Of a DNA stretch of 29,033 nucleotides, positions 14,694-29,033 are shown piece by piece. The notes under the pieces were generated by a model. That model did not search any database. It worked only from the letters and a program-made list of their open reading frames with translations, and was not told the DNA's origin. The DNA lies in the IMG/VR virus record IMGVR_UViG_3300045988_044169, positions 1-29,033 of that record. One strand, 5' to 3'. This DNA is from a virus. Within the stretch, counting starts at the first letter, position 1; every line of letters starts with the position of its first letter. Position numbers and translations under genes: made by a program.

Positions 14694-14694
14694 C

Positions 14695-15190: not shown

Positions 15191-15204
15191 AGAAAGGATC
15201 ACAA

Positions 15205-15450
15205 ATGAGCGTTTACGACACCATCGGCGACAGCCTCGTCGAACGGTACGGAGTCCATTTCAGCGAGGAAGGCGAGCAGAAATCACGCAAGTTCTTCTCA
15301 GGCCTGTGTTTGAAGTTCGGCGATGAGGAAGTCCTCGAGGCTTGGGATACCGCATGCAGGAAGTACGACAATCCCGTGACTGCGATTTCGAAGCTCGGAG
15401 GCATCCTCTACAATCGCAGCCTCTTCAGCTCATTCATCGAAGAAGAGTGA
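15205..15450 (+). CDS. Hypothetical protein (81 aa)
   Basis: AAGAAAGGA RBS. Ordinary-looking acidic sequence. No motif recognised. Confidence 0.5.
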   Translation: MSVYDTIGDSLVERYGVHFSEEGEQKSRKFFSGLCLKFGDEEVLEAWDTACRKYDNPVTAISKLGGILYNRSLFSSFIEEE

Positions 15451-15456
15451 ACACGT

Positions 15457-15486
15457 CGGTGTGTCGTCGAGGAAACGTGTTAGACT
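15457..15486 (+). promoter_or_regulatory. Promoter cassette B: CGGTGTGTCG (1 mismatch) + 14 nt + TAGACT
   Basis: Followed by AAAGACATA, as in cassette F. Lies upstream of a 125-nt structured leader. Confidence 0.4.
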
Positions 15487-15496
15487 AAAGACATAC

Positions 15497-15595
15497 GCCA
15501 TTTCAAGTGCCCCCCGCTTGAGTGGAGCAACAATTTGAAATGGCACGAATCCCATTGATTGCCACCGGGGGGGCCGGTAGCAGCCAGTGGGATTC
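15497..15595 (+). other. Two-hairpin 5-prime leader of the replication initiator gene, with a C6 run and a G7 run
   Basis: GCCATTTCAA/TTGAAATGGC (15497-15506/15535-15544) encloses CCCCCC (15510-15515). GAATCCCA/TGGGATTC (15547-15554/15588-15595) encloses ACCGG-GGGGG-CCGGT (15564-15578). Confidence 0.5.
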
Positions 15596-15617
15596 ACTAT
15601 AATAAAGGATCAATATC

Positions 15618-16382
15618 ATGGCCGCCGTCAAAGACAACAACTTCATCGCAATCCAAGGATGGATGCGTACCCAGCTCAACCTCAAAGGCAACGAGCTACT
15701 CATCTACGCGCTCATCTACGGCTTCTCACAAGACGGGAACTCCAAGTTCTCCGGCACCAGACGATACATCGCAGAATGGTGCGGATGCTCCATGAAGACA
15801 GTCGACAACACCATCGCATCACTCCTCGCCAAGCAGCTCATCGTCAAGCATGAGAAATACGTGAACGGAATCCGCATGTGCGACTACACGGCCGTCCCCC
15901 CGGAAACCGCCACACGGCAGAACGACACGCAAGCCCCCACCGACGCGAAAACCCATACCGAACTCACGACTGAACACAACCCCGCCGAACCACAGCCGCT
16001 CATCGGCGAACCGCAGATCCCCGCACAACCGAAGAAGCCAGACCCCACCGAAGAGGTCGTAAACCACCTCAACCGTCGTGCCGGCACCCAATACAAGCCC
16101 ACCACGGCAAACACACGCAAACTCGTCAAGGCGCGCCTCAAGGAAGGCTTCACCATCGAAGACATGAAACTGGTCATCGACAAGAAATGCTCAGACTGGC
16201 TCAACAACCCGGAAATGGCAAAATTCCTCCGCCCGGAAACCCTCTTCGGTAACAAATTCGAAGGCTACCTCAACGCCAATGCCATGACGCAAAACAACCG
16301 GAACAACAGCTCCAACCACCAGTCAGCCTATTGCGCACCAGTAGCGGACGACGAAAAGCCCAGCTGTTCCTTCGGATGGTGA
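15618..16382 (+). CDS. Replication initiator / replisome organiser (N-terminal HTH plus conserved phage C-terminal domain)
   Basis: VVNHLNRRAGTQYKPTTANTRKLVKARLKEGFTIEDMKLVIDKKCSDWLNNPEMAKFLRPETLFGNKFEGYLN matches the conserved phage C-terminus (Phg_2220_C-type) pattern. It precedes the DnaC-like loader. Confidence 0.8.
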   Translation: MAAVKDNNFIAIQGWMRTQLNLKGNELLIYALIYGFSQDGNSKFSGTRRYIAEWCGCSMKTVDNTIASLLAKQLIVKHEKYVNGIRMCDYTAVPPETATRQNDTQAPTDAKTHTELTTEHNPAEPQPLIGEPQIPAQPKKPDPTEEVVNHLNRRAGTQYKPTTANTRKLVKARLKEGFTIEDMKLVIDKKCSDWLNNPEMAKFLRPETLFGNKFEGYLNANAMTQNNRNNSSNHQSAYCAPVADDEKPSCSFGW

Positions 16383-16417
16383 CGCACAATAAGCAGACAT
16401 CGACCACACGTAAACCA

Positions 16418-16458
16418 CGACACGCCGGTAACACAATGCCAGCGACACGTGAGATAAC
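16418..16458 (+). promoter_or_regulatory. Promoter cassette G: inverted 10-mer CGACACGCCG + 25 nt + GATAAC
   Basis: Perfect reverse-complement copy of the 10-mer, in the gap before the loader gene. Confidence 0.35.
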
Positions 16459-16487
16459 ATTGACACAGATAGCAGAAAGGAGCCACA

Positions 16488-17333
16488 ATGGAAACCAACA
16501 TCATCGAAAACATACTCCACGAAGCAAGCCAAGACAGCCACTACGAAAAAGGCGACTACCTCAACGAAAACGGCCTCCTCATGTGCGGCAAATGCCACAC
16601 CCCAAAACAATGCCGCTTCATCGCCACATGGGACGGCAAGGAAAAGAAACCGTACACGCTCTGCGACTGCGCGCGCGAACGCCAGAACGCAGAAGAACAG
16701 GCACGACAGGCGCAAAACCTCCGCATCGAAATAAACCGGCTCCGCAAACTCGGCTTCCCCGACAGTGAAATGGCCGACTGGACATTCAACACCGACGACG
16801 GAACAAACAAAACAGCCTCCGACATCGCACACCGATACGTCGACAACTTCGCTGAAATGAAGAGGCACGGCAAAGGACTACTGTTCTACGGCCCCGTCGG
16901 TACCGGCAAAACGTTCCTCGCGGCATGCATCGCCAACGAGCTCATCAGCCAAGGCCGTCCATGCCTCGTAACCAACTTCGCACGGATCACGAACACCCTC
17001 CAAGGAATGTTCGACGGCAAGCAGCGTTACCTCGACGACCTAAACCGGCTGGACCTGCTCGTCATCGACGATCTAAGTGCGGAACGAGACACATCCTATA
17101 TGAACGAAATGGTCTTCAACATCATCGACTCTCGATACCGGAGCGGAAAGCCACTCATCCTCACAACCAACCTCTCAAAAGAAGAGATGATAAATCAGCC
17201 AAACACCGACAAACAGCGCATCTACAGCCGCCTAGTCGAAATGTGTTTCCCCGTTGAAGTTAAAAACGTGGACAGACGGAAAAAGAAGGCTCAAGAAGAC
17301 TCGGCAGACCTGAGAAGACTCCTTAACCTATAG
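16488..17333 (+). CDS. DnaC/IstB-like AAA+ helicase loader
   Basis: Walker A GPVGTGKT, Walker B LLVIDDL, then SAERDT and LILTTNL. Confidence 0.85.
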   Translation: METNIIENILHEASQDSHYEKGDYLNENGLLMCGKCHTPKQCRFIATWDGKEKKPYTLCDCARERQNAEEQARQAQNLRIEINRLRKLGFPDSEMADWTFNTDDGTNKTASDIAHRYVDNFAEMKRHGKGLLFYGPVGTGKTFLAACIANELISQGRPCLVTNFARITNTLQGMFDGKQRYLDDLNRLDLLVIDDLSAERDTSYMNEMVFNIIDSRYRSGKPLILTTNLSKEEMINQPNTDKQRIYSRLVEMCFPVEVKNVDRRKKKAQEDSADLRRLLNL

Positions 17334-17343
17334 GACAGGACAA

Positions 17344-17375
17344 GGCGACACGTGTAAAAACGTGCCGCCTTTTTT
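17344..17375 (+). terminator. Rho-independent terminator
   Basis: GGCGACACG-tgtaaaaa-CGTGCCGCC (one mismatch) followed by TTTTTT. Confidence 0.7.
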
Positions 17376-17384
17376 GCCCTACAT

Positions 17385-17415
17385 CGGCGTGTCGGACCAC
17401 GTTTGTGGGTATAGT
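17385..17415 (+). promoter_or_regulatory. Promoter cassette C: CGGCGTGTCG + 15 nt + TATAGT + conserved leader
   Basis: Leader TATAGTGTTAAATATCAGGCAAGGAG resembles cassettes D, E and F. Confidence 0.55.
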
Positions 17416-17470
17416 GTTAAATATCAGGCAAGGAGAACACCAAGCCTCCAAAACAAAAAGGAAACCCAAA

Positions 17471-17767
17471 ATGAACAAGAACGACAACATACACACCCTC
17501 TCCGTCATCCTCAACGGATGCCTACCTTACGAATACGACCAGAAGCTCACCGACAACGAAACCACCCTCGCCATCACCAAGGAAGGCTCCGACCTCACCA
17601 TGTACGTCAGCACCGACGTAAACAACGGCGACGACTTCATAGTGACCTACGGCCGCGACGACCCAACCATGGGCTACTACACGACATACGAGACCTTCCG
17701 CTGGACTACCGAAGACGAGCAAATCCCCCTCGACACCATCCTCAAAGACATCATGTCCTGCCTCTGA
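17471..17767 (+). CDS. Small very acidic protein (98 aa)
   Basis: Track ORF trimmed to ATG 17471 (AAAAGGAAAC upstream). By my count 12 Asp + 6 Glu against 4 Lys + 2 Arg. Confidence 0.6.
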   Translation: MNKNDNIHTLSVILNGCLPYEYDQKLTDNETTLAITKEGSDLTMYVSTDVNNGDDFIVTYGRDDPTMGYYTTYETFRWTTEDEQIPLDTILKDIMSCL

Positions 17768-17797
17768 CAACCCATCAAACATAGAAAAGAACCCAGA

Positions 17798-18088
17798 ATG
17801 AACCTCGACACCAACACCCTCGCCACCGAAATCTCCAACGCACTAACCGCCACCAGCGAAGACTACACGACAACCGTCGTCGACCTCGACATATACGGCG
17901 CCTCCTGCGAAATCACCAAGTACGGCTCAAACAGAAAACTGCACCTCACTCCAGTCGACGACAACCTGATCGACATGATCCTGTTCGATGAGACCGGAAA
18001 CACGATCGCAAGCGGCACCCTATTCAACGAAGCCGTCACTGACATCACTCCGGAAGAACTCGCCAACCTCGTCACGATCTGCCTCTAA
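17798..18088 (+). CDS. Small very acidic protein (96 aa)
   Basis: By my count 9 Asp + 7 Glu against 2 Lys + 1 Arg. It ends in ...CL, as does the preceding protein. Confidence 0.6.
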   Translation: MNLDTNTLATEISNALTATSEDYTTTVVDLDIYGASCEITKYGSNRKLHLTPVDDNLIDMILFDETGNTIASGTLFNEAVTDITPEELANLVTICL

Positions 18089-18099
18089 AAGGAGAAACA

Positions 18100-18552
18100 A
18101 TGAGCCGCAAGAAAAAGGAACCGGTCATCGTCGACCTAAACGACGCCGACATGATGAACTGGATCAACGAAATGCGAAACAGCCAACCATCCGCGGCTGA
18201 ACGACGCAAAATCAGTGACTACCGGTATTACCACCGACACAAGGAAGAACGAGCTGAAGCGAACCGCAAATGGAGGGAAGCACACGCCGAACATTACGCA
18301 GAGAAACAAAAGGAATACCACAGCAACCCAAAGACCCTAAAAAAGAAGCGCGAAGCAGCTCGAGAACGCTACCACTCCGACTCCGAATGGAGGGAAACGA
18401 TGCTCGCCAGACAAAGGGAACGCTACCACGCTATGACCCCGGAACAGAGAGCTGAATACGTACGGAAACAGAGGGAGCGGGCCCGCATACGACGAGCCAA
18501 CGACAAAGCCAAGAAACTCAAAACCGAAACCACCCGAAAGGAACAAGCATGA
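18100..18552 (+). CDS. Highly basic Arg/Lys/Glu-rich helical protein with repeated RERYH motif
   Basis: GGAGAAAC RBS. RERYH occurs twice, with the related KEYH and YRYYHRH. 4-nt overlap with the next gene. Confidence 0.6.
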   Translation: MSRKKKEPVIVDLNDADMMNWINEMRNSQPSAAERRKISDYRYYHRHKEERAEANRKWREAHAEHYAEKQKEYHSNPKTLKKKREAARERYHSDSEWRETMLARQRERYHAMTPEQRAEYVRKQRERARIRRANDKAKKLKTETTRKEQA

Positions 18553-18902
18553 ACAACAGCATCGACCATCCAACCCATTACACCGACCGCAACATCGGCT
18601 ACGAATGCATCGTTCTCACCAAATACCAATACTTCTGCGCCGGAAACGTTATCAAATACCTGTGGAGGCACAAGTCAAAAGGACACTCAACCGAAGACCT
18701 GAAAAAAGCACGATGGTACGCACGACTCGCAGCCACAAGACACGAAGTGACGTACACGACAAGCACATGCGGGATCATCCTGCACAAACTGGTGCAATCA
18801 ACCGACGGCTTGGAACGTGTCGCATGGTACGGTGTCCGTACCAGCGCATGGCATACCGTCATCAAAGCTTTGGACCGAATGATAGAGGGGGAAAACGAAT
18901 GA
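18549..18902 (+). CDS. DUF3310-like protein
   Basis: HPTHYT ... GNVIKYLWRHKSKGHSTEDLKKARWY matches the DUF3310 pattern (HPxHY ... GNxxKYxxR ... DLxKAxxY). Confidence 0.75.
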   Translation: MNNSIDHPTHYTDRNIGYECIVLTKYQYFCAGNVIKYLWRHKSKGHSTEDLKKARWYARLAATRHEVTYTTSTCGIILHKLVQSTDGLERVAWYGVRTSAWHTVIKALDRMIEGENE

Positions 18903-19075
18903 CACGCAAACTTCACGACGTCCAGATCGAAAGAGTCATGGCAGAACACTACCTTTTCGACCTTGACCAGCCGGTCAAAAAGACCGCCGAAATCCTCGCC
19001 ATGGACGAGGACTATGTCAGGAAGATTCACGACGACTACGTCAGATTCATCCTGCCGACAAGGAGAAGCGAATGA
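18899..19075 (+). CDS. Small putative DNA-binding protein (58 aa)
   Basis: Below the track cutoff in its own frame. ATGA overlap with the upstream gene. TAEILAMDEDYVRKI is HTH-like. Confidence 0.4.
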   Translation: MTRKLHDVQIERVMAEHYLFDLDQPVKKTAEILAMDEDYVRKIHDDYVRFILPTRRSE

Positions 19076-19242
19076 AGAAAGCAATGAAGAACCAGATCAC
19101 CAAATGGTATGAGGCCGGACTGACGGTCAACGAAATGGCCCCGATCATCCCGCAATACTCCAAGCCGGAAATCGAAGCCGTCATCAAGGAATACAGGAAG
19201 GAAAAGGAATGGGAACGGTTGACTGGTGGCTCGTGGTCCTAA
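19072..19242 (+). CDS. Small putative HTH protein (56 aa)
   Basis: Hand translation: MKKAMKNQITKWYEAGLTVNEMAPIIPQYSKPEIEAVIKEYRKEKEWERLTGGSWS. ATGA overlap with the upstream gene. Confidence 0.4.
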   Translation: MKKAMKNQITKWYEAGLTVNEMAPIIPQYSKPEIEAVIKEYRKEKEWERLTGGSWS

Positions 19243-19305
19243 TGATCGCGATCACGATCCTTATCTCCTATAAGGGAAGATAAGAGCGGGAAACCCGACA
19301 GTTCA

Positions 19306-19347
19306 CGGCGTGTCGCACCTAGTGTGGCACGCATTTTGTGTTATAGT
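19306..19347 (+). promoter_or_regulatory. Promoter cassette D: CGGCGTGTCG + 26 nt + TATAGT + conserved leader
   Basis: The 10-mer is part of an imperfect palindrome: GCGTGTCGCAC-cta-GTGTGGCACGC. Leader: TATAGTAAACATATCAAGCAAGGAG. Confidence 0.55.
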
Positions 19348-19393
19348 AAACATATCAAGCAAGGAGCTTGACAAACACAAAAAGGAGCAAACA

Positions 19394-19750
19394 ATGAACG
19401 CCATCACCACAGACGAAATCAAAACCATGATGCACGACATCGACGTACGCCTCGACCAGAAAAGCCATTACACCACCGACGTCATGCAGAAAGGCACCAT
19501 CTACCACGTCGGCGACCACAAATACGTCACACTCGACGACTATGCGCAAACCTTCGAAGACTACGAATGGAGCCGCGACGGTGCAGAATGGGCCTGCTAC
19601 CTATACACGCTCACCAAAAACAACCCGGAACGCATCGACTTCTACACGCAGGCATACAACATCGGAGGCATGGAAACACTTGAAACGCTCTACAACAACG
19701 TAACCGAATCAACGCCAATGACCATCGTCTACCCAATCTACAAGCACTGA
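19394..19750 (+). CDS. Hypothetical acidic protein (118 aa)
   Basis: Track ORF trimmed to ATG 19394 (AAAGGAG lies 7 nt upstream). Confidence 0.6.
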   Translation: MNAITTDEIKTMMHDIDVRLDQKSHYTTDVMQKGTIYHVGDHKYVTLDDYAQTFEDYEWSRDGAEWACYLYTLTKNNPERIDFYTQAYNIGGMETLETLYNNVTESTPMTIVYPIYKH

Positions 19751-19780
19751 CAGCCAACACCACAAAAGGAACCCCACAAA

Positions 19781-20374
19781 ATGGAAAACAACAACCTCAA
19801 CAGGAAATTCGCTGAAGTCCTCAACGAAGTCCCTAACTTCAGCACCGACGAAACCGCACAAGCCGGCAACCGCACCTACAAGTACCTCAACCTCGCCACC
19901 CTACTCAAGACCGTCAAACCAGTCTTCGCAAAACACGGACTCGCATTCACCCAAAAAGTCACCTACACCCACGGAGGAGACGGAAGACAAATCCTCGGCA
20001 CCATCGAAACCATCATTTTCGACGACACCGATCAGATGACGGTCTGCGAATACCCGTTCTTCGTTACTGGAGACCCACAGCAAGTCGGAAGCGCCATCAC
20101 CTACGCACGACGCTACAGCCTCACCACCATCCTCGGCATCTTCCCAGACAAGGATGACGACGGAGCATACGCACGACAGCAGTACGAGACCGCCGACAAG
20201 CCAATCGGAGCCGACCAGTACGCCACGCTCGTCAAGGCAATGGACGCACACGCCATTCCAACGGAAGCACGAGGCGAATTCATCAACGGTACACTCAACC
20301 GGCCGGTCAGGGGCTGGAAAGGCATCACCCAGTCCGACATGACGAAACTCATGAACGCCATCAACAGGATGTGA
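19781..20374 (+). CDS. erf: ERF-family single-strand annealing protein
   Basis: YKYLNLATLLKTVKPVFAKHGLAF ... GSAITYARRYSLTTILGI matches ERF family signatures. Confidence 0.85.
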   Translation: MENNNLNRKFAEVLNEVPNFSTDETAQAGNRTYKYLNLATLLKTVKPVFAKHGLAFTQKVTYTHGGDGRQILGTIETIIFDDTDQMTVCEYPFFVTGDPQQVGSAITYARRYSLTTILGIFPDKDDDGAYARQQYETADKPIGADQYATLVKAMDAHAIPTEARGEFINGTLNRPVRGWKGITQSDMTKLMNAINRM

Positions 20375-20381
20375 CAAGGAT

Positions 20382-20413
20382 AAAAGCCCCGACATGCACA
20401 CGGCGGGGCTTTT
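20382..20413 (+). terminator. Rho-independent terminator (A-run upstream, so possibly bidirectional)
   Basis: AAAAGCCCCG-N12-CGGGGCTTTT. Confidence 0.65.
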
Positions 20414-20448
20414 ACCATATCAGGAACACAATGGAGGAGGGAAGAAAA

Positions 20449-20490
20449 CGACACGCCGGCATGTTCCCCTACCTCCCCAAATGATATAGT
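20449..20490 (+). promoter_or_regulatory. Promoter cassette E: inverted 10-mer CGACACGCCG + 26 nt + TATAGT + conserved leader
   Basis: Leader: TATAGTAAGAATATCAACCAAGAAAGGAAGG. Lies upstream of the exonuclease gene. Confidence 0.5.
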
Positions 20491-20517
20491 AAGAATATCA
20501 ACCAAGAAAGGAAGGCA

Positions 20518-21423
20518 ATGAAAATCATCAACCTCTCACAAGCAAACAACACCGACGCATGGCTCAACGAACGCATCGGCCGCATCACCGGCACCAAAAG
20601 CAGCAGCCTAGCCCTCGAACCATACACGCCAATCAACATCGGAAAACTCACAGAATCACGAAACAAAGCACTAGAACAATCCAAAACAGCGAAAACACCA
20701 GAGAAAACCGCCGAATACTACCAGAAAGCACGAGAATACGACAAACAAATAATCGAAGCCGAAACCAAAAACAAACGATTCAAGACCGGCATCGAATTCT
20801 GGAAATTCCTCGCAGAAACACTCGCCGACCAGCCAGACAACGAACCACCAATGGAACGAGGACACAGACTCGAACCGGAAAACATCCAACACACACTATA
20901 CGAACTCGGCTATCAGCCAGAAACCTGCATCACGGACTGCGGCATCTGGGAAAGCGATGAAGACAATCGCATCGCGTGCAGCCCAGACGCCTACGAAAAC
21001 GCCGAAAACCCCACATGGGCCATCGAGTGCAAAAGCCTAGGCTCCGCCTACCACCTGCAAACAGTCATCCCATGGATGACACACAATCAGGCCATCGGCA
21101 AAAAAACCATGCCACTGGAACTAGTCGACATGGCCGACCGAATCCTACCGGAATACACCCTAGAACAGCAAGCCACCGGATTCGACTTCGTACCAGACAA
21201 ATACAAGGCGCAAGTGCTTCAATACTTTGTCGTCTGCGACTCCCTCAACACATTGTACTTCTCCATGTACGACCCACGAGTCTTCGGAGAAGCCCGACAC
21301 CAAATCATCCCCATACACAGAAAGGACATCAAAACGCTAATCGCCAACCACAAACAACGACAACTCGTTACACTCCACCTCGTCGACACCATCTCGAAAA
21401 TGACAGGAGCTACATTCCAATGA
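20518..21423 (+). CDS. YqaJ-type (lambda Exo-like) recombination exonuclease
   Basis: WLNERIGRITGTKSSSL ... ERGHRLEPENI ... IACSPDAY ... WAIECKS fits the YqaJ PD-(D/E)XK pattern. It is paired with Erf. Confidence 0.8.
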   Translation: MKIINLSQANNTDAWLNERIGRITGTKSSSLALEPYTPINIGKLTESRNKALEQSKTAKTPEKTAEYYQKAREYDKQIIEAETKNKRFKTGIEFWKFLAETLADQPDNEPPMERGHRLEPENIQHTLYELGYQPETCITDCGIWESDEDNRIACSPDAYENAENPTWAIECKSLGSAYHLQTVIPWMTHNQAIGKKTMPLELVDMADRILPEYTLEQQATGFDFVPDKYKAQVLQYFVVCDSLNTLYFSMYDPRVFGEARHQIIPIHRKDIKTLIANHKQRQLVTLHLVDTISKMTGATFQ

Positions 21424-21698
21424 CCATCGACACCCTCATTCAAAGCAAAGACATCTACGTGGTCTTCGATGGATGCCCAACCTGCCATCCGAAAAGCTCA
21501 AAATACCTCGACGAATGCCGAATGCAAGCACAGAAAACACGACAACAACTACACGTCATACCATCAGGCAGCCAAACGGCCACACTGATGAGACTCATCG
21601 CCCAAAACCAAGGACGACGCATCGAATACCCAATGATCCTCACGGACGGCATCATCCGATACGATCCACAGGACATCACCGAAAAGAGCCACAAATGA
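21420..21698 (+). CDS. Glutaredoxin/NrdH-like small redox protein (92 aa)
   Basis: Internal start of track ORF 20976..21698, with ATGA overlap to the upstream gene. Contains VVFDGCPTCHP (a CxxC motif). Confidence 0.6.
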   Translation: MTIDTLIQSKDIYVVFDGCPTCHPKSSKYLDECRMQAQKTRQQLHVIPSGSQTATLMRLIAQNQGRRIEYPMILTDGIIRYDPQDITEKSHK

Positions 21699-22030
21699 AA
21701 ACAGAATGGTGGACTGCAGTCATTACAGCCGGACTCACTGCCGGATACGCCGTCACGACGACGCAACTCTCACCGGGACCCGCATACATCTTCAGCAAAC
21801 TCAGAAAACGACTCACATCCAAAACCGAAAACCAAGCCAACGACCTGACATCCAGTCTCGGAGAACTCGCCTACTGCGGATGGTGCCTCAGTCCATACAT
21901 GACACTCCCCATCTGGACCGCAGCCGCTAAAGCCTCCAACATCCGCTTCGGATTCAAATGGCTCACCGGATGGACCACCGCAACAGCCATCGCCGCATAC
22001 TACAGGCATCAAGCAGAAAGCAGAATCTAA
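21695..22030 (+). CDS. Membrane protein (DUF1360-like)
   Basis: Internal start of track ORF 21473..22030, with ATGA overlap. Hydrophobic spans and a CGWCLSPY motif. Confidence 0.55.
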   Translation: MKTEWWTAVITAGLTAGYAVTTTQLSPGPAYIFSKLRKRLTSKTENQANDLTSSLGELAYCGWCLSPYMTLPIWTAAAKASNIRFGFKWLTGWTTATAIAAYYRHQAESRI

Positions 22031-22317
22031 TGCACAACATCCCGCAATGCCACGTGATCGTCCTCCTCCATCTGATCGAGGAGCCAACCACCCAAGAACA
22101 CCTGACCGCGATAGCCCCGAAACTGGGTTGTTCCGACACTCCGCAAAGCCTAAGAAGCCGCATGGTCGAACTTGAACGGGGCGGATACGTCCACCGCGTC
22201 GACAGAAACGGCGTCAGCAGCCACAATCGCCCATGCTGGCGATGGCAGCTCACCAAGAAAGGTAAAGACCTCGTCCAAGAACTCCTCGACCCAACCGCGT
22301 CAGCCGAAAGGAAATGA
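22030..22317 (+). CDS. Winged-helix (MarR-like) transcriptional regulator
   Basis: TAATG overlap with the upstream gene. EHLTAIAPKLGCSDTPQSLRSRMVELERGGYVHRV ... WQLTKKG fits a wHTH pattern. Confidence 0.6.
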   Translation: MHNIPQCHVIVLLHLIEEPTTQEHLTAIAPKLGCSDTPQSLRSRMVELERGGYVHRVDRNGVSSHNRPCWRWQLTKKGKDLVQELLDPTASAERK

Positions 22318-22324
22318 GAACACC

Positions 22325-22651
22325 ATGGCAACGAACCCATTCACCGTCACCATCGACGGCAAGGAAACCCTAGTATGCCAGAGCGCCCACACAGGGCTCT
22401 TCTACTCCATCCGAAACGACGGCAGGCATATCCCCGTCAGCTATCGTCTCATCAAGACGCAGGTCTCCAGCATGCAGCGGCTCAAATACTGGCGGAGCCG
22501 TTACGGGTACACGCAGTCCGACCTAGCCGAAAGACTCCACGTGTCCAGTAAGACCATCATCGAGATGTGGGAAAACGGGTTGAGACACCCGCTCAAGAAA
22601 TACAGGCAGCTGATCAACGCCGAACTCAGTCAGGACATCTTCCCCGACTGA
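22325..22651 (+). CDS. Protein with C-terminal XRE-type HTH
   Basis: Track ORF trimmed to ATG 22325. Contains YTQSDLAERLHVSSKTIIEMWENG. Confidence 0.6.
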   Translation: MATNPFTVTIDGKETLVCQSAHTGLFYSIRNDGRHIPVSYRLIKTQVSSMQRLKYWRSRYGYTQSDLAERLHVSSKTIIEMWENGLRHPLKKYRQLINAELSQDIFPD

Positions 22652-22663
22652 TCCCCTTCCCTA

Positions 22664-22704
22664 CGGCGTGTCGCATCAGTGTGGCACGCCGATTATGATA
22701 TAGT
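22664..22704 (+). promoter_or_regulatory. Promoter cassette F: CGGCGTGTCG + 25 nt + TATAGT + conserved leader
   Basis: Same imperfect palindrome as cassette D. Leader: TATAGTAAAGACATCAAGCAGAG. Confidence 0.55.
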
Positions 22705-22751
22705 AAAGACATCAAGCAGAGATTCTGCCTAACATAAAAAAGGAGCCACAA

Positions 22752-23021
22752 ATGGAAACCGTCAAATACCTCACCACCATCATCAGCCTCATCATGCAAC
22801 AGCCGAAAATCGGGACCATCCTCGACAAGGACGGACTCGACCCGGAAATCACCTACGGGCGAGTCGGCCTCAAAGACTACAACGCGTTCATCAACCTCTA
22901 CGGCCTACTGAACGGCATCGAAGAAGTCGAAACCACACCAGTCCACGAAATCGACAACGGCATCGGATACGACTTCACCATGACAGCCCCGATCACACTA
23001 CACTTCTTCTACTGGAAGTAA
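22752..23021 (+). CDS. Hypothetical acidic protein (89 aa)
   Basis: AAAAGGAGCC RBS. It has its own promoter cassette and its own terminator. Confidence 0.55.
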   Translation: METVKYLTTIISLIMQQPKIGTILDKDGLDPEITYGRVGLKDYNAFINLYGLLNGIEEVETTPVHEIDNGIGYDFTMTAPITLHFFYWK

Positions 23022-23036
23022 TCCAAAAACATACGT

Positions 23037-23079
23037 AAACGCCCCGCAGCCGGCCGAACAAGCCAGACGCGGGGCGTTT
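23037..23079. terminator. Bidirectional terminator between the convergent early-right and lysis units
   Basis: AAACGCCCCGC-N21-GCGGGGCGTTT. Confidence 0.7.
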
Positions 23080-23095: not shown

Positions 23096-23395
23096 CTAGC
23101 GGCTCACACCGGCATAATGCACTCCGAACAAGCCAGCCACACCGGAACCAACCAGCGCGCAAGCGCCACCAACGACAGCAACCCACGACGGAACACCCGG
23201 AACAGCACTCACCAGACTAGCCACCGCACCGGCAATCCCAACCAAACCAGACACCAAATACGCCCAACGACGCGTCCCGGCATCAAACGTAGGCACATAA
23301 TTATCCGAACCGTCGGCACACTCGTTCGTGATCATGGTCTCCGAAACCGGCTCACCAGACAACACGTCATCAGCCAACACCGCATGCTTAACCAT
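23096..23395 (-). CDS. Holin-like membrane protein downstream of the endolysin
   Basis: Track ORF trimmed to ATG 23395 (AAAGGA lies 11 nt upstream). The C-terminal half has two Gly/Ala/Val-rich hydrophobic spans. Confidence 0.6.
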   Translation of the reverse strand: MVKHAVLADDVLSGEPVSETMITNECADGSDNYVPTFDAGTRRWAYLVSGLVGIAGAVASLVSAVPGVPSWVAVVGGACALVGSGVAGLFGVHYAGVSR

Positions 23396-23414
23396 AAACA
23401 ACCAATCCTTTCAA

Positions 23415-24260
23415 TCAGTGGAAAATAATACCGTCATTAAGACGCTTCTGAAACTCCTTCACGGCCATGCTCGGAGCGGGACCGATTATCCCATCACCCG
23501 AAAAACCGTTCATCTCCAACAGGAACCTGCGAACGAACTCAGGGCCCGCATTACGAGGCCGGTCCGTAATACCGAACCGATGAGACATCCACTCAACCCA
23601 ATCACTACCCGAAGTACCCTCCTCAAGACAGGCGATATTCCGATTCTCAACACACCTGATCTGCCCGGACATGACACCATCGACCGACGTGCCGGCAACC
23701 TCCTGAGCCCTACGCATCGTCAACGGCCCCCAAGAACCATCCACCTCAAGCTTCGTGACCGACTGTGTGGCAGGCTGGACAGGCACCGGATTCGACGGAG
23801 CCACCAAACCCCGAGCCAAACGATCTAAACGATCCAGATCATACGAGCCCGGACACTGCGTCGCAGAACAATCACGATGACGAATCAAAGGCAAATCACC
23901 ATACACCGTCCGCAGATCGCGAATAAGCTCGGCGATCGTCTCATAATCGCCATCCGACTGACGAGGATTACACTCGATGCCAATACCCATATCATTGCCC
24001 TTGGAACCTACGCCGACCCCATCCCCGGCATTCCACGCACGATCATCAGGATCCACAATGCACGCCACACGGCCGGCCTCGGCCACGTAATGTGCGGAAG
24101 CGCTACGAGCCGGACTGCACAAGGTCTTAATGACACCCTCGAACGTCGGGTGCGTATTTGGATCACCCCACCAATGAATTACAATGAACTTGATACCATA
24201 CGGGCGACCGCTCGTATAATTCGGGCTATCATACCGGGTAATGTTCTCGTAAGACATCAT
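23415..24260 (-). CDS. Endolysin: N-acetylmuramoyl-L-alanine amidase (Amidase_2/PGRP-type) with C-terminal peptidoglycan-binding-like repeats
   Basis: Trimmed to ATG 24260 (AAGGAAG RBS). FIVIHWWG ... SAHYVAEAGRV ... AWNAGDG ... IGIECNP ... HRDCSATQCPG. The C-terminus has VDGSWGPLTMRRAQ and GDGIIGPAPSMAVKEFQ repeats. Confidence 0.9.
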   Translation of the reverse strand: MMSYENITRYDSPNYTSGRPYGIKFIVIHWWGDPNTHPTFEGVIKTLCSPARSASAHYVAEAGRVACIVDPDDRAWNAGDGVGVGSKGNDMGIGIECNPRQSDGDYETIAELIRDLRTVYGDLPLIRHRDCSATQCPGSYDLDRLDRLARGLVAPSNPVPVQPATQSVTKLEVDGSWGPLTMRRAQEVAGTSVDGVMSGQIRCVENRNIACLEEGTSGSDWVEWMSHRFGITDRPRNAGPEFVRRFLLEMNGFSGDGIIGPAPSMAVKEFQKRLNDGIIFH

Positions 24261-24271
24261 AAAACTTCCTT

Positions 24272-24463
24272 TCAAACAGTCAAAACATACCAAACGGTAA
24301 AAAGAAAACGAGCGAAATCCGGAATCCCAGTAACAAGCAGATAACCGCCTACCACCATGACGCCAATAAGAAACGACGACAAGAGAATAAGAACGACGTT
24401 CTCGATGAATTCACGACTCATGCCACCAAGCATACCAAAACACACTACGCTAGACTTAATCAC
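24272..24463 (-). CDS. Small two-span membrane protein upstream of the endolysin (second holin candidate)
   Basis: 63-aa ORF (GTG start; internal ATGs are possible). Hydrophobic spans VVLILLSSFLIGVMVVGGYLLV and FARFLFTVWYVL. Start codon uncertain. Confidence 0.4.
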   Translation of the reverse strand: MIKSSVVCFGMLGGMSREFIENVVLILLSSFLIGVMVVGGYLLVTGIPDFARFLFTVWYVLTV

Positions 24464-24808
24464 ATGACCGAACTAATATCATCCATCATCGGACTCGCCG
24501 GCATAGCAGTAGGCGGCACCATCACATGGGCCACCACACGACGCAACAACCTCACCACCGCCTACCAACACCTCGTAGAAGCACAAGGCGAACTCAAAAA
24601 ACAAATCGACGCTCAAGACGAAAAAATAAACAAACTCATCCGAACACGAGACGGACTACAACACACAAGCGACCTCGAAACCAGCTACATCCGTAACCTA
24701 GGCCACTGGCTCTCCGAATTCTGCGAAATAGTCGACGGAGAATTCCTCACACGCCACCCAAAACCATCCCTACCAGACGAACTACGAGACCGCATCTGCC
24801 CACTCTGA
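24464..24808 (+). CDS. Membrane-anchored coiled-coil protein encoded against the flanking minus-strand genes
   Basis: N-terminal span LISSIIGLAGIAVGGTITWA, then an amphipathic helix region. No competing minus ORF. Followed by a 12-bp hairpin. Caveat: no clear SD sequence, and long ORFs arise easily on this A+C-rich strand. Confidence 0.55.
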   Translation: MTELISSIIGLAGIAVGGTITWATTRRNNLTTAYQHLVEAQGELKKQIDAQDEKINKLIRTRDGLQHTSDLETSYIRNLGHWLSEFCEIVDGEFLTRHPKPSLPDELRDRICPL

Positions 24809-24827
24809 CCGACCCGACATGAAACAA

Positions 24828-24859
24828 GTGCCATGATCGAACAATCACGATCATGGCAC
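24828..24859. terminator. Perfect 12-bp hairpin between convergent genes
   Basis: GTGCCATGATCG-aacaatca-CGATCATGGCAC. Weak U-tracts on both sides. Confidence 0.5.
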
Positions 24860-24890
24860 TCTAGTCAGAAAACCAAAACCAGACAAACCC

Positions 24891-25790
24891 CTAATACCGT
24901 CTGGAAATCGGCCAACTCACACTACCCCTACGAGAACCAGTCGAACCAGTCCCACCCCTATTAGTGACCTTAATGGTACCGTCAACCCCAACCATCAACA
25001 AACCAGTGGCACTACCCCCATTCTCAACACAAAGAGCAGCCGAAACATCCACCACAGGACAACACGCCGTCTTCACCTTACCTGTAAAAGGCACTTCAGC
25101 CCACGAGCCATTATCGATCTGAATACCGGAAACCTGAACAGTACAAGAATCCGCACCATACAAGAGCGTAATACTCCCATTAAGCCAATTAGTGGTGACC
25201 ACTTCGAGAGTGTCATGCCAGACGCCATTCTCCCTCACATACCGGGTACCGGAAGCCGCCACAAACACTTCCTGCCCATCAGCCGCGGGAAGAGTCTTCA
25301 ACCTATCCACGTTAGCCACTTCCACCAGCATGCTCTGACGCAACACAGGAACCACGTCAGAAATAACGCCAGCAGTAACATAAGCAAGCACCAAACCGGG
25401 AATCGTATCATCGGCAGCCGACTCCGGATACACCTTCACCAAACCACGAGGCTCGCTACCATGCGAATGATTCGGATCCTCCACAATGACCGCAATCTTA
25501 TAATTACCGGACAGACCGGGAACTGTCACGGTCTCATCGCTCTTAACGGCATAAGTGTAAGACCCGATATTAGCCCACGGGCTCACTATCCCACAATGAG
25601 GTCGGACGGTGACCTTCAACCCGTCGATCACACACAACGGGCTCGCAGCACCATACAACACGCCGGAAACACAGTTGAAAACCGTACCATCAGACGGAGC
25701 CAGGAACGGGTTGACGACATGCCGAAAATCATCAGCCGTGTAAGCCGGAGCCCCATCCACGGCAGTCAAAGGATGCATGACAATACTCAT
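24891..25790 (-). CDS. Tail fibre / receptor-binding protein (distal-most structural gene)
   Basis: 299 aa, Val/Gly/Ser/Thr-rich beta-type sequence. It is the last gene of the tail module. Called by position. Confidence 0.6.
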   Translation of the reverse strand: MSIVMHPLTAVDGAPAYTADDFRHVVNPFLAPSDGTVFNCVSGVLYGAASPLCVIDGLKVTVRPHCGIVSPWANIGSYTYAVKSDETVTVPGLSGNYKIAVIVEDPNHSHGSEPRGLVKVYPESAADDTIPGLVLAYVTAGVISDVVPVLRQSMLVEVANVDRLKTLPAADGQEVFVAASGTRYVRENGVWHDTLEVVTTNWLNGSITLLYGADSCTVQVSGIQIDNGSWAEVPFTGKVKTACCPVVDVSAALCVENGGSATGLLMVGVDGTIKVTNRGGTGSTGSRRGSVSWPISRRY

Positions 25791-25793
25791 AAA

Positions 25794-26486
25794 CTACTCT
25801 CCAACAGTAGAATTCTTAATATAAGCCTCCTCTATTTTAACAATCTTTGCGGAAAGACTCTCGACCACATCCTTCAATTTATCCACCTCATCCATGCTCT
25901 CCTGAGCCAACCGTAAAGCAGCCATACTCAACTTCGGATAGTCAACGCCGACAGGAACATCATCGTCATCATATTCACAAAAGAAACCAAGCCCCGCATC
26001 ATCCAAATCCTCGGCAATGAGACCGACAACCGGCTGCGCGTCATCAAGTTTCAAATTCAAATCATCATTGAACCAATACACGTGCCATTTCACCCGACGG
26101 AGAGCGTCCAACGGGATGAACCCGTCAGCATCCTCAACATTCGCCACTGAACACGCCGACGAACAATCACTACCTAACGTCCCATCATAAAGACAATAAA
26201 CCGGCTTCCGAGGAGTCAACGAAAGCGTAGCGTCAAACACGCTACGAACACCGGTACCACCATGAGCCGGCACCACCACGATACCATCACCGTCAACATC
26301 AGACTGATCCACTCCCACGGAAAGCGAGTTGAAATCACTTTCAACGGCAGCGACACGCGCCCCCAACCGTCCAACGCTCTTACCGACACTAGCCGGCAAC
26401 TCTCGCAACTGACGACGAACCTCCGAAAACTGGCGGGCGGTCGCATCCACCCCATCAAGCGAAAACCTGAACTTACCTTGCATCAT
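25794..26486 (-). CDS. Tail fibre protein with C-terminal region resembling an intramolecular chaperone (peptidase S74-type) domain
   Basis: VVGLIAEDLDDAGLGFFCEYDDDDVPVGVDYPKLSMAALRLAQESMDEVDKLKDVVESLSAKIVKIEE resembles the GFIAQE...Y..L...L..AIQEL pattern of S74 chaperone domains. This is from memory only. Confidence 0.55.
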   Translation of the reverse strand: MMQGKFRFSLDGVDATARQFSEVRRQLRELPASVGKSVGRLGARVAAVESDFNSLSVGVDQSDVDGDGIVVVPAHGGTGVRSVFDATLSLTPRKPVYCLYDGTLGSDCSSACSVANVEDADGFIPLDALRRVKWHVYWFNDDLNLKLDDAQPVVGLIAEDLDDAGLGFFCEYDDDDVPVGVDYPKLSMAALRLAQESMDEVDKLKDVVESLSAKIVKIEEAYIKNSTVGE

Positions 26487-26492
26487 ATCCTC

Positions 26493-27602
26493 CTACTGCA
26501 ATACGGGCGTAACAGTCCAAGAACCACTGAAATCAATATCGTATCCGACGACACGAGCCTCACCATGTTCAAAACCTTCCAAACGTCCACTATCATCGGT
26601 GATATTCCATGCGACGACATCACCCGGACTCCAATCCCGATAAACAACAGGCGCGGCCATCAGATCCAACGTCATGTCAACAGTGTCCGTACCATTCTGT
26701 AATTGCCGTAACGCGAACATGGCGTGATCGTTCAACGTTTCCTTCTGCGTAATACTATCCGACACTCGGGCCACATATTCGACGACAGGACGATAAGACT
26801 GTTCCACGGTCATCACATTAGACCGCAACTGATCCTCCCCCGACGTACTCCCGACCGCCACGACCATATTCGAACCATAACCAGTCGTGTAATCCTCCAC
26901 GATCCTGAAAGACGTCATCACACTCTCATCAAACGTCGTGATCGGAGTGACGGAACCTATCCTGTCCGCAACCGTCAAAACCGGCAGATATCTGCCACCA
27001 TCGACTGCCCTCCATGACGTACACCATTCCGGGCCATTCTGAACATTCGAAAAGTTCTGAAGAACACTCAGCAACGTTTTCTCGGAGGACTCTTCATACG
27101 TCCTGTCGCGTAATATCCTACTGGAAGACACGTCCGTCAGAAGCGTGAACCGATGATCCGTGAGCGTACTCGACACAAGATCCTCCACGATCTCGCACTG
27201 GTCACGTTTCGAATACGAGTGATCCTTCACATACACGCTGTCGAAATAATGTTCGACGGTCGCCAACGTGAGGGACAGTCCCCGATCCTGCAAGCAACGC
27301 TCCCGTTTGACGACGATACCACCCCATAATACGGTCAGTCCGCTCACCAAGACGATAGCCACACCATATGGGATCGTCGCCTCATTCCAATTAGATGGAA
27401 TGTTCCGCCACGGAACCGTCACCGTCTCACTCGTCTTTTCCTCAAAACGATACGAAAACTTGGAAACCTGCAAGTCCGGGAATTCCGCCAACACGGTTCC
27501 ACTGGTCAAAGACACCGAAAGGAATTGAAACCCGGCCGTATCCCACAATGCATACTCGCCCAAAGAACGGGACGAGTCAAACCAATCATCAGACAAAACC
27601 AT
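26493..27602 (-). CDS. Tal-like minor tail / baseplate hub protein (by position)
   Basis: 369-aa ORF directly downstream of the Dit-position gene. Confidence 0.55.
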   Translation of the reverse strand: MVLSDDWFDSSRSLGEYALWDTAGFQFLSVSLTSGTVLAEFPDLQVSKFSYRFEEKTSETVTVPWRNIPSNWNEATIPYGVAIVLVSGLTVLWGGIVVKRERCLQDRGLSLTLATVEHYFDSVYVKDHSYSKRDQCEIVEDLVSSTLTDHRFTLLTDVSSSRILRDRTYEESSEKTLLSVLQNFSNVQNGPEWCTSWRAVDGGRYLPVLTVADRIGSVTPITTFDESVMTSFRIVEDYTTGYGSNMVVAVGSTSGEDQLRSNVMTVEQSYRPVVEYVARVSDSITQKETLNDHAMFALRQLQNGTDTVDMTLDLMAAPVVYRDWSPGDVVAWNITDDSGRLEGFEHGEARVVGYDIDFSGSWTVTPVLQ

Positions 27603-27612
27603 GACATGCTCC

Positions 27613-28503
27613 TTACAAGTAAGCCGGATAGAACGAAACCGTCATACGAGCGTCACTTGAATATTTGCTCGCACTGAAAGCCCACTCGTTCGATCCGGCC
27701 ACAGCCTGACTCCACTCACGTCTGACGACACGGGCACGAGCCGGATCGAACCCGTCGACCAATATCTCATGGTTCATGCCGTTCACGGTCACATAATGGC
27801 CGATGCCGAGACTCATGTCGAAAGCTATGACATGCCCACTCTCGACATGCGATACCTGCGGGTTTACGACCGGACCATCGATGCGAATAAACACCGGACT
27901 GGAAGCGTTACCAATATTCGACAGTGAAACATGACCGGATATGATATCCTCACTCCACGTCCAAGACGACACTGAACCACTACACGTTCCGAAACAGTAG
28001 GGGAGTGTCATACCGCCAGACGTTCTCGGCAATCCAGACACGCCAGACACCAGTTCAAGCCCGTACAAGCACGGGTCCAAAGACGTCAAGCCAACACTGA
28101 AATGAAGCATGTTCACTCCAGCCCATTTAACCAATGGTGCGGACGCTGACGGCACCACTTGCAGTTGACGGGCGATATTCCCAAGTTGTACTACCAGTCT
28201 CATGCCAGCAGTGTTCAGAACGCTTTTAAACGCGGTCCACGCGTTCACGCATGATTCGGTACACCGGCCGATGATATGGCCTTCGATACTGATGGTACGG
28301 CCTTTCAAACGAGGCAGATTACCATACCAGCCGTCAGTCATAAGCTTTTCACTGGTTTGTAAAGTCGACCCCACACCGTCGAACAAGCCGGACACGTCCT
28401 GAAACGTGACATGCCATTCGCACCCATACGAGTCCACTCCGTAGAGAGGGAAATCGTTCAACGTTAACCGAAGGTCACGGGAATCGGGAAAAAACATGCT
28501 CAT
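27613..28503 (-). CDS. Distal tail protein (Dit-like, by position)
   Basis: 296-aa ORF immediately downstream of the tape measure stop. Confidence 0.65.
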   Translation of the reverse strand: MSMFFPDSRDLRLTLNDFPLYGVDSYGCEWHVTFQDVSGLFDGVGSTLQTSEKLMTDGWYGNLPRLKGRTISIEGHIIGRCTESCVNAWTAFKSVLNTAGMRLVVQLGNIARQLQVVPSASAPLVKWAGVNMLHFSVGLTSLDPCLYGLELVSGVSGLPRTSGGMTLPYCFGTCSGSVSSWTWSEDIISGHVSLSNIGNASSPVFIRIDGPVVNPQVSHVESGHVIAFDMSLGIGHYVTVNGMNHEILVDGFDPARARVVRREWSQAVAGSNEWAFSASKYSSDARMTVSFYPAYL

Positions 28504-28521: not shown

Positions 28522-29033
28522 TCACACGTAACAGAAATTGATCATTCGCACCGTTTCCCGAGCCGCCATCGTCGGATCGGAAGCATTCACGGTAATCGGA
28601 GCGGACACGCGAGGCCCACTGTTCTCATTCAAAGCCACCGGGGAAGCCATTGGAGTCGAAAGAGAACCTGACAGTGAGGACGGGAGTAGATCCGATATCA
28701 TGCTCTGTACCGGTCGTACGGCCAAGCTTTCGTTCATTTCCACGCCGACACCCAAACCGGCGGGGATCATCTTGCCGACCTCGTCACGGAACACTCGTGA
28801 TGGCGAGTGAATTCCAAGAGCGCCCTTCGCGGCGTTGACGATGCTGGAAGCCGCTCCCTTGACTGCTGCGACGGCATTGCCTATGGCTCCTTTAATGCCG
28901 TTGATCAGGCCTTGGATGATGTTGTTGCCGGCGGAAACGAGCCATGATCCGGCATTGTTGAACGCGCTTCTGATCTTACCGCCGATACCATTGACTGTGT
29001 TTGAGACCGCGTTGACACCGTTACGTACGGCAC
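28522..29033 (-). CDS. Tail tape measure protein, C-terminal part (continues from 1..1592 across the junction)
   Basis: Hand translation upstream of the track fragment stays open to 29033: GKIRSAFNNAGSWLVSAGNNIIQGLINGIKGAIGNAVAAVKGAASSIVNAAKGALGIHSPSRVFRDEVGKMIPAGLGVG... The GIHSPSRVF motif is typical of tape measures. The frame matches 1..1592 through the overlap. Confidence 0.85.
   Translation of the reverse strand, partial: AVRNGVNAVSNTVNGIGGKIRSAFNNAGSWLVSAGNNIIQGLINGIKGAIGNAVAAVKGAASSIVNAAKGALGIHSPSRVFRDEVGKMIPAGLGVGVEMNESLAVRPVQSMISDLLPSSLSGSLSTPMASPVALNENSGPRVSAPITVNASDPTMAARETVRMINFCYV
28979..29033. repeat. 55-nt exact terminal overlap, right copy
   Basis: Identical to 1..55. It lies inside the tape measure ORF. 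Confidence 0.98.

Follow-up and report, generated by a model that had tools for sequence, protein, structure and literature searches.

Why should two groups of genes that lie on the same strand of a small phage, in one operon, use opposite synonymous codons? The question is raised by the IMG/VR virus record IMGVR_UViG_3300045988_044169, which was analysed over its whole length of 29,033 nucleotides (hereafter the window, whose numbering is used throughout). The two groups are the head and tail genes at 1593-12955 and the tail-tip and lysis genes at 23096-28503, both on the minus strand, and an earlier sequence-only reading of the window had claimed that their third codon positions are biased in opposite directions. 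Because the last 55 bp (28979-29033) are a copy of positions 1-55, a terminal direct repeat that represents an assembly overlap and marks a circular contig, the window corresponds to a circle of 28,978 bp. The best reading of the evidence is a genome-wide asymmetry in two arcs that arises from strong mutation pressure dependent on position and DNA strand, with neither codon preference nor gene import as its cause.

The extent of the bias is expressed here as GT3, the share of codons with G or T at the third position. Counts over full genes confirm the reversal of sign, with a GT3 of 0.245 for the head and tail genes and 0.733 for the tail-tip and lysis genes (Table 1 gives the codon numbers and the remaining gene groups). 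Gene by gene, the former range from 0.09 to 0.36, with the exception of a collagen-like repeat gene at 0.52, and the latter from 0.59 to 0.82 with just 6.8% of codons ending in A. The comparison of the two minus-strand blocks yields a chi-square of 959 (p ~1e-210), in a test whose tail-tip set included the tape-measure gene and thereby diluted the contrast. The hand-counted samples on which the original claim was built are exact for the tape measure (codons 1-100, 89 ending in C or A), the portal (codons 1-16, 12 in C or A), the candidate receptor-binding protein (RBP) gene (25023-25079, 19 of 19 in G or T), the Tal-like gene (27003-27059, 13 of 19 in G or T) and two 60-nt base counts. The erf sample was miscounted by one (35 of codons 1-40 end in C or A, not 36), and codons 1-26 of the endolysin gene contain the 18 reported G/T endings together with three in A rather than none. 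The third-position effect is the strongest, yet first positions also differ (G+T of 0.33-0.54 in the head and tail genes, or 0.33-0.48 without the collagen-like gene, versus 0.57-0.75 in the tail-tip and lysis genes), and second positions shift in the same direction. Protein composition is thus dragged along, and a shift at all codon positions is what pervasive mutation pressure would do.

The DNA itself shows the same division. Between 1.5 and 12.5 kb, GC skew is +0.10 to +0.38 and AT skew -0.11 to -0.48; between 15.5 and 28 kb the corresponding values are -0.08 to -0.33 and +0.12 to +0.48. The plus strand accumulates G and T in the first arc (arc 1, ~1.3-13.05 kb) and the minus strand does so in the other (arc 2, ~15.6-28 kb). 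A three-segment fit places plus-strand G+T at 0.632 in arc 1, 0.496 at 13050-15600 and 0.362 in arc 2, and the extremes of cumulative keto skew fall at ~13.2 and 28.8 kb, with equivalent places in nine relatives. Two arcs split by switches of sign had been proposed and are retained here; the proposed point switches, with arcs of 11.8 and 17.2 kb, are replaced by two low-skew zones of ~2-2.5 kb, one in the tape-measure and Dit region (S1) and one at 13.05-15.6 kb (S2). The largest keto skew over 5 kb is 0.31 in the window, against a median of 0.057 and a maximum of 0.15 in 47 unrelated phage and prophage loci, a small baseline on which the bias may be called unusually strong, as had been said of it. 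A practical corollary, that the length of an open reading frame (ORF) is unreliable on the A+C-rich strand, is likewise borne out: over all three frames, stop codons occur at 0.020 per codon on that strand, about half the frequency on the G+T-rich strand (0.038-0.040), and spurious ORFs as long as 233 aa lie over real genes. The magnitude of the skew does not follow expected expression, for which levels were assumed from gene function; in all 10 genomes compared, the bias within arc 1 is lowest in the major capsid gene, and the major tail gene belongs to those with the highest.

These genomes belong to a group of about 40 IMG/VR human-gut contigs of 28.8-32 kb that have the same gene order. 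For comparison with the window, complete sequences were rebuilt for nine more phages of the close clade, whose TerL is at least 83% identical, and for two of a sister clade (TerL ~79%). The nearest cultured relatives are the Bifidobacterium asteroides phages BlindUri1 and BlindBasel1 (MT006234, MT006235), with a portal 49% identical, and no DNA-level match to the window beyond 200 bp at 72% was found among 50,697 cultured phage records. No publication describing this clade or its skew was found in full-text literature searches.

The bias follows the DNA strand, whichever strand codes. Where the plus-strand early genes meet the minus-strand lysis genes at 23.05 kb, plus-strand third-position G+T, taken in 100-codon bins, continues unbroken (0.15-0.34 on the early side, 0.15-0.26 on the lysis side), and this continuity across the change in gene orientation is seen in 10 of 10 complete clade genomes. 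A plus-strand gene embedded in the minus-strand block, at 24464-24808, is among the most A+C-rich genes of the genome, with a GT3 of 0.044 in the window and 0.05-0.08 in relatives within the clade. The sister-clade orthologue, 64-65% identical, lies on the minus strand with a GT3 of 0.49; inverted between the clades yet biased as its surroundings are, the gene thus took on the bias of its new strand. A flip of sign with the coding strand, the signature of a transcription-type bias, is not what is found, since minus-strand genes stand at 0.73 in one block and 0.245 in the other. The claim that the bias tracks the strand and not the direction of transcription therefore stands. A misassigned coding strand in 23096-28503 was also considered and rejected, as the minus-strand ORFs have Pfam, PHROG and protein-database support; the plus-strand ORFs that overlap the block have low-complexity translations rich in H, R, T and P.

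The two arcs recur in every member of the close clade, at a keto skew of +/-30-40% per kb, and GT3 of the orthologues is 0.60-0.84 for tail-tip genes and 0.06-0.36 for head genes. The sister clade exhibits a weak version (head genes 0.29-0.46, tail-tip genes 0.53-0.61) and has a different replication module, without this initiator, DnaC-like gene, dUTPase and DUF1064 resolvase. Differences at fourfold sites within the close clade (p-distances of 0.13-0.43) are near saturation for such a composition, and the bias must therefore be continually renewed; to judge from these genomes, the two-arc asymmetry is actively maintained across the clade. In one sister-clade genome (IMGVR_UViG_3300045988_012809, rotated, 13208-14137, minus strand) a single gene of ~1 kb has full-strength skew. 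The product has 309 aa and a RusA-like C-terminal part; with a GT3 of 0.24 and a local keto skew of +40%, the gene may be a recent transfer from a strong-skew lineage.

A reversible model applied to the three closest pairs gave the substitution rates at fourfold sites, which are hence tied to base composition. On the plus strand of arc 1, C>T is ~4 times as frequent as G>A and A>G ~5 times as frequent as T>C. In arc 2 the asymmetry is reversed, 3-7-fold, and is alike in the minus-strand tail-tip genes and the plus-strand early genes. Because parsimony polarisation clearly counts too many changes away from the commonest base, only the signs of its complementary-type ratios were used; these agree with the rate estimates. 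Fourfold composition on the plus strand of arc 1 is G 0.61, T 0.22, C 0.11 and A 0.06. Relative to low-skew genes, the main shift on the G+T-rich strand is from C to T (C3 from 0.48 to 0.20, T3 from 0.09 to 0.38), and A is nearly lost. Neighbouring bases have a weak effect at these sites, T/(C+T) being 0.53-0.87 and G/(A+G) 0.83-0.96 in every context. A motif-specific deaminase, as in APOBEC-like editing, was rejected as the agent because the depletion lacks a strong dependence on the neighbouring base.

Features of both switch zones bear on the origin of this pressure. In S2, plus-strand genes have a GT3 of 0.36-0.44, the sharp change of polarity coincides with the divergent intergenic region 12956-13261, and strong arc 2 bias begins at the initiator gene (15618), just downstream of a TATAAT at 15598. 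Cumulative GC skew is maximal in this region, where iteron-like arrays adjoin the genes for an HTH_36/Phg_2220_C initiator and an IstB/DnaC-like ATPase. Short-period tandem arrays occupy the same place in nine of the 10 close-clade genomes, usually as 21-23 nt x 2.4-4.7 followed by 12-15 nt x ~3. Their sequences differ by lineage, which suggests co-evolution with the initiator protein, and several public contigs break within them. In the sister clade a 21-23-nt array lies within the initiator ORF, near the point where that clade's cumulative skew is greatest. Semi-palindromic direct repeats that converge on an A-tract are described as typical iterons of RepA_N theta replicons (PMC7145576), and the arrays of the window are regarded as a putative replication origin. 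Beside them lies a non-coding element of ~400 nt with ~80% nucleotide identity across the clade, above that of synonymous sites, in which tblastn hits shift frame. Its consensus fold has a free energy of -112 kcal/mol, with many one-sided G-U/G-C changes and only 3 compensatory pairs, and Rfam contains no match to it; the element may represent a structured RNA or a part associated with the origin. Two minus-strand ORFs in the same stretch (14543-14797 and 14862-15191) were rejected as genes, since their conservation shifts frame among relatives.

The other zone is different in form. The tape-measure gene straddles the switch: GT3 in the window is 0.06-0.16 up to about codon 100 (position ~1290), then jumps to a plateau of ~0.5, and beyond the tape measure it rises over Dit and Tal to reach 0.8, so that S1 is a zone with a gradient of 2-4 kb on one side. 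Binned by 50 codons, the first two stretches of the gene have a GT3 of 0.12 and 0.22, ahead of the plateau. The sharp edge lies elsewhere in other genomes, at the C-terminus of the major tail gene in four relatives and at the start of the tape measure in one. S1 is roughly opposite S2, leaving arcs of 13.2 and 13.2 kb in the window. An exact antipode of S2, as a midpoint where forks meet, was rejected, since the fitted zone tracks neither genome length nor the position of S2. Within the tape-measure protein, codons ~50-250 have 90-100% amino-acid identity across the clade and the central part has 40-60%, which indicates mosaic exchange within the gene that holds the skew switch.

Replication offers a probable, though far from certain, explanation for this arrangement, in which the two arcs would be replichores. 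Bidirectional replication would start at ~14.5-14.7 kb, beside the genes for the initiator and the DnaC-like loader, and would end diffusely in the tape-measure/Dit/Tal zone, roughly opposite. An origin in S2 is favoured by the iterons next to initiator and loader, by their lineage-specific sequences, and by the co-orientation of ~80% of the genes with forks leaving S2. GC-skew replichores have already served to infer origins in gut phages (10.1101/2021.08.26.457843). Replication as the cause, S2 as the origin and all that is said here of replication, transcription and genome ends are drawn from sequence. The earlier proposal of an asymmetry linked to replication or single-strand exposure, with origin and terminus at the switches, is borne out in part: the iterons by the initiator and loader genes at one switch fit it, and the polarity is reversed if that switch is the origin.

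This polarity is the foremost of several points that weigh against replication from S2. In bacteria the leading strand has more G than C and more T than A, and the origin lies at the minimum of cumulative GC skew. Here cumulative GC skew peaks at the iterons, where that rule calls for the minimum; the origin must then lie outside S2, or else the polarity must be inverted. The sharp polarity change in S2 (13.05-13.2 kb, at divergent promoters) is also 1.4 kb away from the iterons; the plus-strand genes to their left (13.26-14.36 kb) are mildly A+C-rich rather than G+T-rich; and both edges of S2 are operon starts. The edge of S1 varies by lineage, the fitted zone ranging from -150 to +1550 without tracking the exact antipode of S2, and a search of S1 for origin-like features revealed no iterons, AT-rich tract or non-coding DNA. 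Along arc 1 the skew shows no trend with distance. The sister clade and BlindUri1 also encode an exonuclease and ERF, yet have weak or no skew, and phages with distant homologues of the DnaC-like protein (44-46% identity) are without skew. Lastly, the rate ratios, coming from a reversible model, are not independent of base composition.

Two related ideas were examined separately. Spearman's rho along arc 1 is -0.29 to +0.24 and non-significant in 10 of 10 genomes, and arc 2 is flat; a distance gradient of the mitochondrial type was therefore rejected. The idea that skew travels with the DnaC-like loader family proved uninformative or negative, given the distant homologues in skew-free phages.

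If S2 is the origin, the strand enriched in G and T is the leading-strand template, equivalent to the nascent lagging strand, and the bacterial rule is turned round. Simple deamination of the lagging-strand template in forks from S2 would then not suffice as an explanation. One candidate cause would be deamination of long single strands produced by the YqaJ exonuclease/ERF system and annealed with lagging-strand identity, in the manner of Red-type recombination, though the exonuclease- and ERF-encoding relatives of weak or no skew speak against it. Others would be low-fidelity or unrepaired lagging-strand synthesis in a host without canonical mismatch repair, or lesions on the exposed strand whose outcome is G>A and T>C. 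The conflict would also be resolved if the origin really lay in S1.

That last possibility amounts to replication of conventional polarity, with an origin at the cumulative-skew minimum in S1, forks meeting at S2 and the G+T-rich strand as a lagging-strand template exposed to deamination. The signs of both GC and AT skew fit the bacterial and mitochondrial rule only with such an origin, and C>T and A>G do dominate the asymmetry on the G+T-rich strand. The tape-measure zone is, however, without origin-like features: it lies within coding sequence and lacks iterons, an AT-rich tract and non-coding DNA. Its edge moves between lineages, with a gradient of 2-4 kb on one side; the iteron arrays and the initiator and loader genes are all at S2; and ~80% of the genes would be head-on to replication. 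An origin in S1 is accordingly thought unlikely. Transcription could account for the pattern if divergent units running leftward from 13.05 kb and rightward from 15.6 kb turned the non-template strand A+C-rich, with early read-through passing antisense over the lysis and tail-tip genes and fading in Tal, Dit and the tape measure. The edges of S2 are indeed operon starts with promoter-like sequences (the TATAAT at 15598, and -35/-10 matches at 13144-13116 and 12979-12951), the plus-strand operon 13262-14358 within S2 is mildly A+C-rich on its own coding strand, the coding strand is A+C-rich over ~80% of the genome, and the most biased gene is the plus-strand gene inside the tail-tip block. The hairpin at 23040-23078, moreover, has a T-tract on its minus-strand side only and so may not stop plus-strand transcripts. 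Nonetheless, with the same GT3 on both sides of 23.05 kb, antisense transcription over 5.5 kb of late genes would have to equal early sense transcription. Transcription-associated bias is known as C>T on the exposed non-template strand, and the polarity here is the reverse. The skew also ignores expected expression, being weakest in the capsid gene, and the late operon needs transcription through the tape measure, Dit, Tal and RBP genes, yet the polarity of arc 1 stops abruptly inside the tape measure. On this balance transcription is an unlikely cause, though it is the main rival outside replication and, on sequence evidence, a formal alternative.

Selection on strand composition, whether for unstructured A+C-rich mRNAs or for a DNA property useful in packaging or defence evasion, would dispense with mutation bias altogether. 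Every class of change that raises G+T on one strand appears favoured, the transversions C>G and A>T included, and the weak neighbour context points to no single enzyme motif, both as selection would have it. A benefit at the level of mRNA fails, however, for those late genes whose mRNAs are G+U-rich, and coding direction makes no difference to the bias, which reaches its maximum at synonymous sites and its minimum in the capsid gene, the place where translational selection should peak. We know of no DNA-level selective agent that acts on bulk keto/amino content, and selection is considered very improbable. A mosaic history, in which the tail-tip and lysis block was imported from a lineage of opposite polarity and its bias is a relic, had been put forward as the alternative to a mutational cause. 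Tape-measure and tail-tip regions of phages are mosaic, central tape-measure identity between clade members is only 40-60%, and the edges of S1 are sharp and lineage-variable. The polarity is nevertheless common to all clade members, whose orthologues are equally biased at 0.13-0.43 fourfold divergence, near-saturating for synonymous sites, and asymmetric substitution continues in the block. The plus-strand bias of the block is that of the adjacent early genes and of the embedded plus-strand gene, and the order and orientation of its genes are ancestral, being common to the sister clade and BlindUri1. No close donor was found, and none nearly identical among cultured phages; recent import is rejected, and a mosaic history is largely refuted, with a minimal chance of being correct.

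Returning to replication, a bolder version of it can be offered as a tentative and rather doubtful proposal. The clade would leave one strand of each half-genome single-stranded or poorly repaired, driving C>T and A>G asymmetry of mitochondrial strength with a polarity opposite to that expected from its own iteron origin, by an unconventional mode of replication whose onset followed the split from the sister clade (79% TerL). If this were true, the options would include bulk passage of the genome through exonuclease/ERF single strands with lagging-strand identity, or initiation within the tape-measure region, so that replication would meet most genes head-on.

The gene content of the window, drawn from six-frame ORFs, Pfam and PHROGs, is collected in Table 1.

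Table 1. Features of the window, with codon numbers and GT3 for the main gene groups
Feature	Position	Strand	Codons	GT3	Description
Head/tail genes (arc 1, late operon)	1593-12955	-	4,122	0.245	Coding strand A+C-rich, plus strand G+T-rich; order from 12955 downwards: HTH/excisionase-like, Bro-N/KilAC, SSB, TerS, TerL (Terminase_3), portal-MuF fusion, protease-capsid fusion, collagen-like, connectors, major tail, two tail chaperone ORFs; the late operon continues with tape measure, Dit, Tal-like, tail protein, RBP candidate, membrane ORF, endolysin, holin candidate
Portal fusion gene	7437-9530	-			Portal with Mu F-like minor head domain (residues 564-688)
Capsid fusion gene	5520-7343	-			Prohead-protease-like N-terminus with major capsid domain (L_lactis_ph-MCP match, residues 374-602)
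Collagen-like gene	5162-5434	-			Gly-X-Y repeats, just past the capsid gene; 9/18/36-nt tandem repeats at 5260-5397
Tape-measure gene	1592 across circle junction to 28522	-			682-aa stop-to-stop ORF on the circularised sequence; 5' three-quarters at 1-1592, 3' end at 28522-28978 within the low-skew part of S1
Tail-tip/lysis genes	23096-28503	-	1,650	0.733	Same operon direction as arc 1, yet G+T-rich coding strand
Dit	27613-28503	-			Weak SPP1_Dit match and PHROG minor-tail families
Tal-like gene	26493-27602	-			PHROG minor tail protein match
Tail protein	25794-26486	-			
RBP candidate	24891-25790	-			
Hairpin	24826-24861				14-bp stem, between the ends of the RBP gene and the embedded gene
Embedded gene	24464-24808	+	114	0.044	Within the minus-strand tail-tip block; PHROG 1397 (function unassigned there)
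Small membrane ORF	24272-24463	-			
Endolysin	23415-24293	-			Amidase_2 and weak sub-threshold PG_binding_1; hundreds of homologues
Holin candidate	23096-23401	-			End of the late operon
Hairpin	23040-23078				GC-rich, at the convergent early (+)/lysis (-) junction; T-rich tail on minus-strand side only
Early operon	15618-23021	+	2,268	0.220	HTH_36/Phg_2220_C initiator, IstB/DnaC-like ATPase (loader), ERF, YqaJ exonuclease, small proteins
Genes of the S2 region	13.3-15.5 kb	+	398	0.397	
Gene between operons	15205-15450	+			In S2, as is 0.8 kb of non-coding DNA between the operons
Conserved non-coding element	14715-15110	+			Between iterons and gene 15205; G+T-rich on plus strand
Iteron-like arrays	14532-14693				Three semi-palindromic 18-nt repeats (CACTGTAAAAGTTACAGC) at 22-24-nt spacing, then three 12-13-nt repeats and a polypurine palindrome; low-GC patch
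Short operon	13262-14358	+			In S2; small protein, dUTPase, DUF1064 resolvase

The window most likely represents a small human-gut phage that probably infects Bifidobacterium, a host assignment based on endolysin homologues in genomes of Bifidobacterium species and on the cultured Bifidobacterium asteroides phage relatives. One endolysin cluster has 1,261 member sequences, and the clade thus appears to be common in public data. The mechanical ORF of the endolysin gene starts at a TTG at 24293; its 280-aa homologues begin at the methionine at 24257, the probable start, and a promoter-like TTGACT-16-TATGAT lies close by at 24283-24256. The embedded plus-strand gene abuts the start of the membrane ORF, and with no intergenic space at 24463/24464 the promoters of both genes must sit within coding sequence. 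No integrase or repressor was recognised in the window and no prophage relatives were found in GTDB representative genomes; despite this, excisionase-like HTH and Bro-N/KilAC antirepressor-type proteins are encoded at the head of the late operon. The termini of the contigs were considered as physical genome ends and rejected, since the breaks in the IMG/VR contigs concentrate at two sites, the iteron arrays and the 9-nt repeat of the collagen-like gene (5260-5397), and are thus assembly breaks, uninformative on cos or pac ends.

An asymmetry of this kind has practical consequences. Callers of ORFs meet long spurious frames on the A+C-rich strand, prediction of hosts from codon usage or k-mers is misled by the opposite codon usage in two halves of one operon, and composition-sensitive phylogenies or recombination scans can be distorted. 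Work on strand asymmetry has usually relied on bacterial chromosomes, whose skews are weak, or on mitochondria, whose mode of replication is disputed. If the bias is linked to replication, what determines how strong such an asymmetry is, and which sign it takes, could be studied in this phage clade, a compact natural system of 29 kb for which dozens of relatives have been sequenced and both a sister clade of weak skew and an outgroup without skew are available.

In kind, the pattern would be a replication-type strand asymmetry, with a strength and base pattern that resemble those of vertebrate mitochondrial DNA. Like the GC and AT (keto) skew of replichores in bacterial chromosomes, plasmids and some phages, it divides a circle into two opposite arcs irrespective of gene orientation, is strongest at synonymous sites and has one switch near an origin-like element; unlike them, its amplitude is several-fold larger, its switches are low-skew zones of 2-2.5 kb and its polarity is reversed if the iterons are the origin. 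The asymmetry between heavy and light strands of vertebrate mitochondria is attributed to deamination of the displaced strand, with a gradient that follows the time spent single-stranded. The phage shares with it a comparable magnitude, a G+T-rich and an A+C-rich strand, one base nearly lost at synonymous sites, amino-acid composition dragged along, and the dominance of C>T and A>G asymmetry. It differs in having two arcs rather than one polarity for the whole genome and no distance gradient, and in being a double-stranded DNA siphophage with iterons and a DnaC-like loader. The transcription-associated skew of BlindUri1 and of many other phages is similar in that most genes have one coding-strand bias and the S2 edges are at operon starts, but such a skew would flip at 23.05 kb and at the embedded plus-strand gene, where no flip occurs here. 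BlindUri1 itself has a weak coding-strand excess of A over T throughout, tail-tip genes included. BlindUri1 and BlindBasel1 share with the window a structural/lysis operon and a divergent early operon in ~32 kb, with TerL, MCP, Dit, Tal, exonuclease and ERF 40-49% identical. Unlike the window, they keep GC skew within ~+/-0.1 and GT3 at 0.38-0.58 for structural genes and 0.38-0.65 for all orthologues, and their host is the bee-gut Bifidobacterium asteroides. Against these systems, what stands out is the amplitude of the asymmetry, its recent onset relative to the sister clade and the conflict of its polarity with the putative origin.

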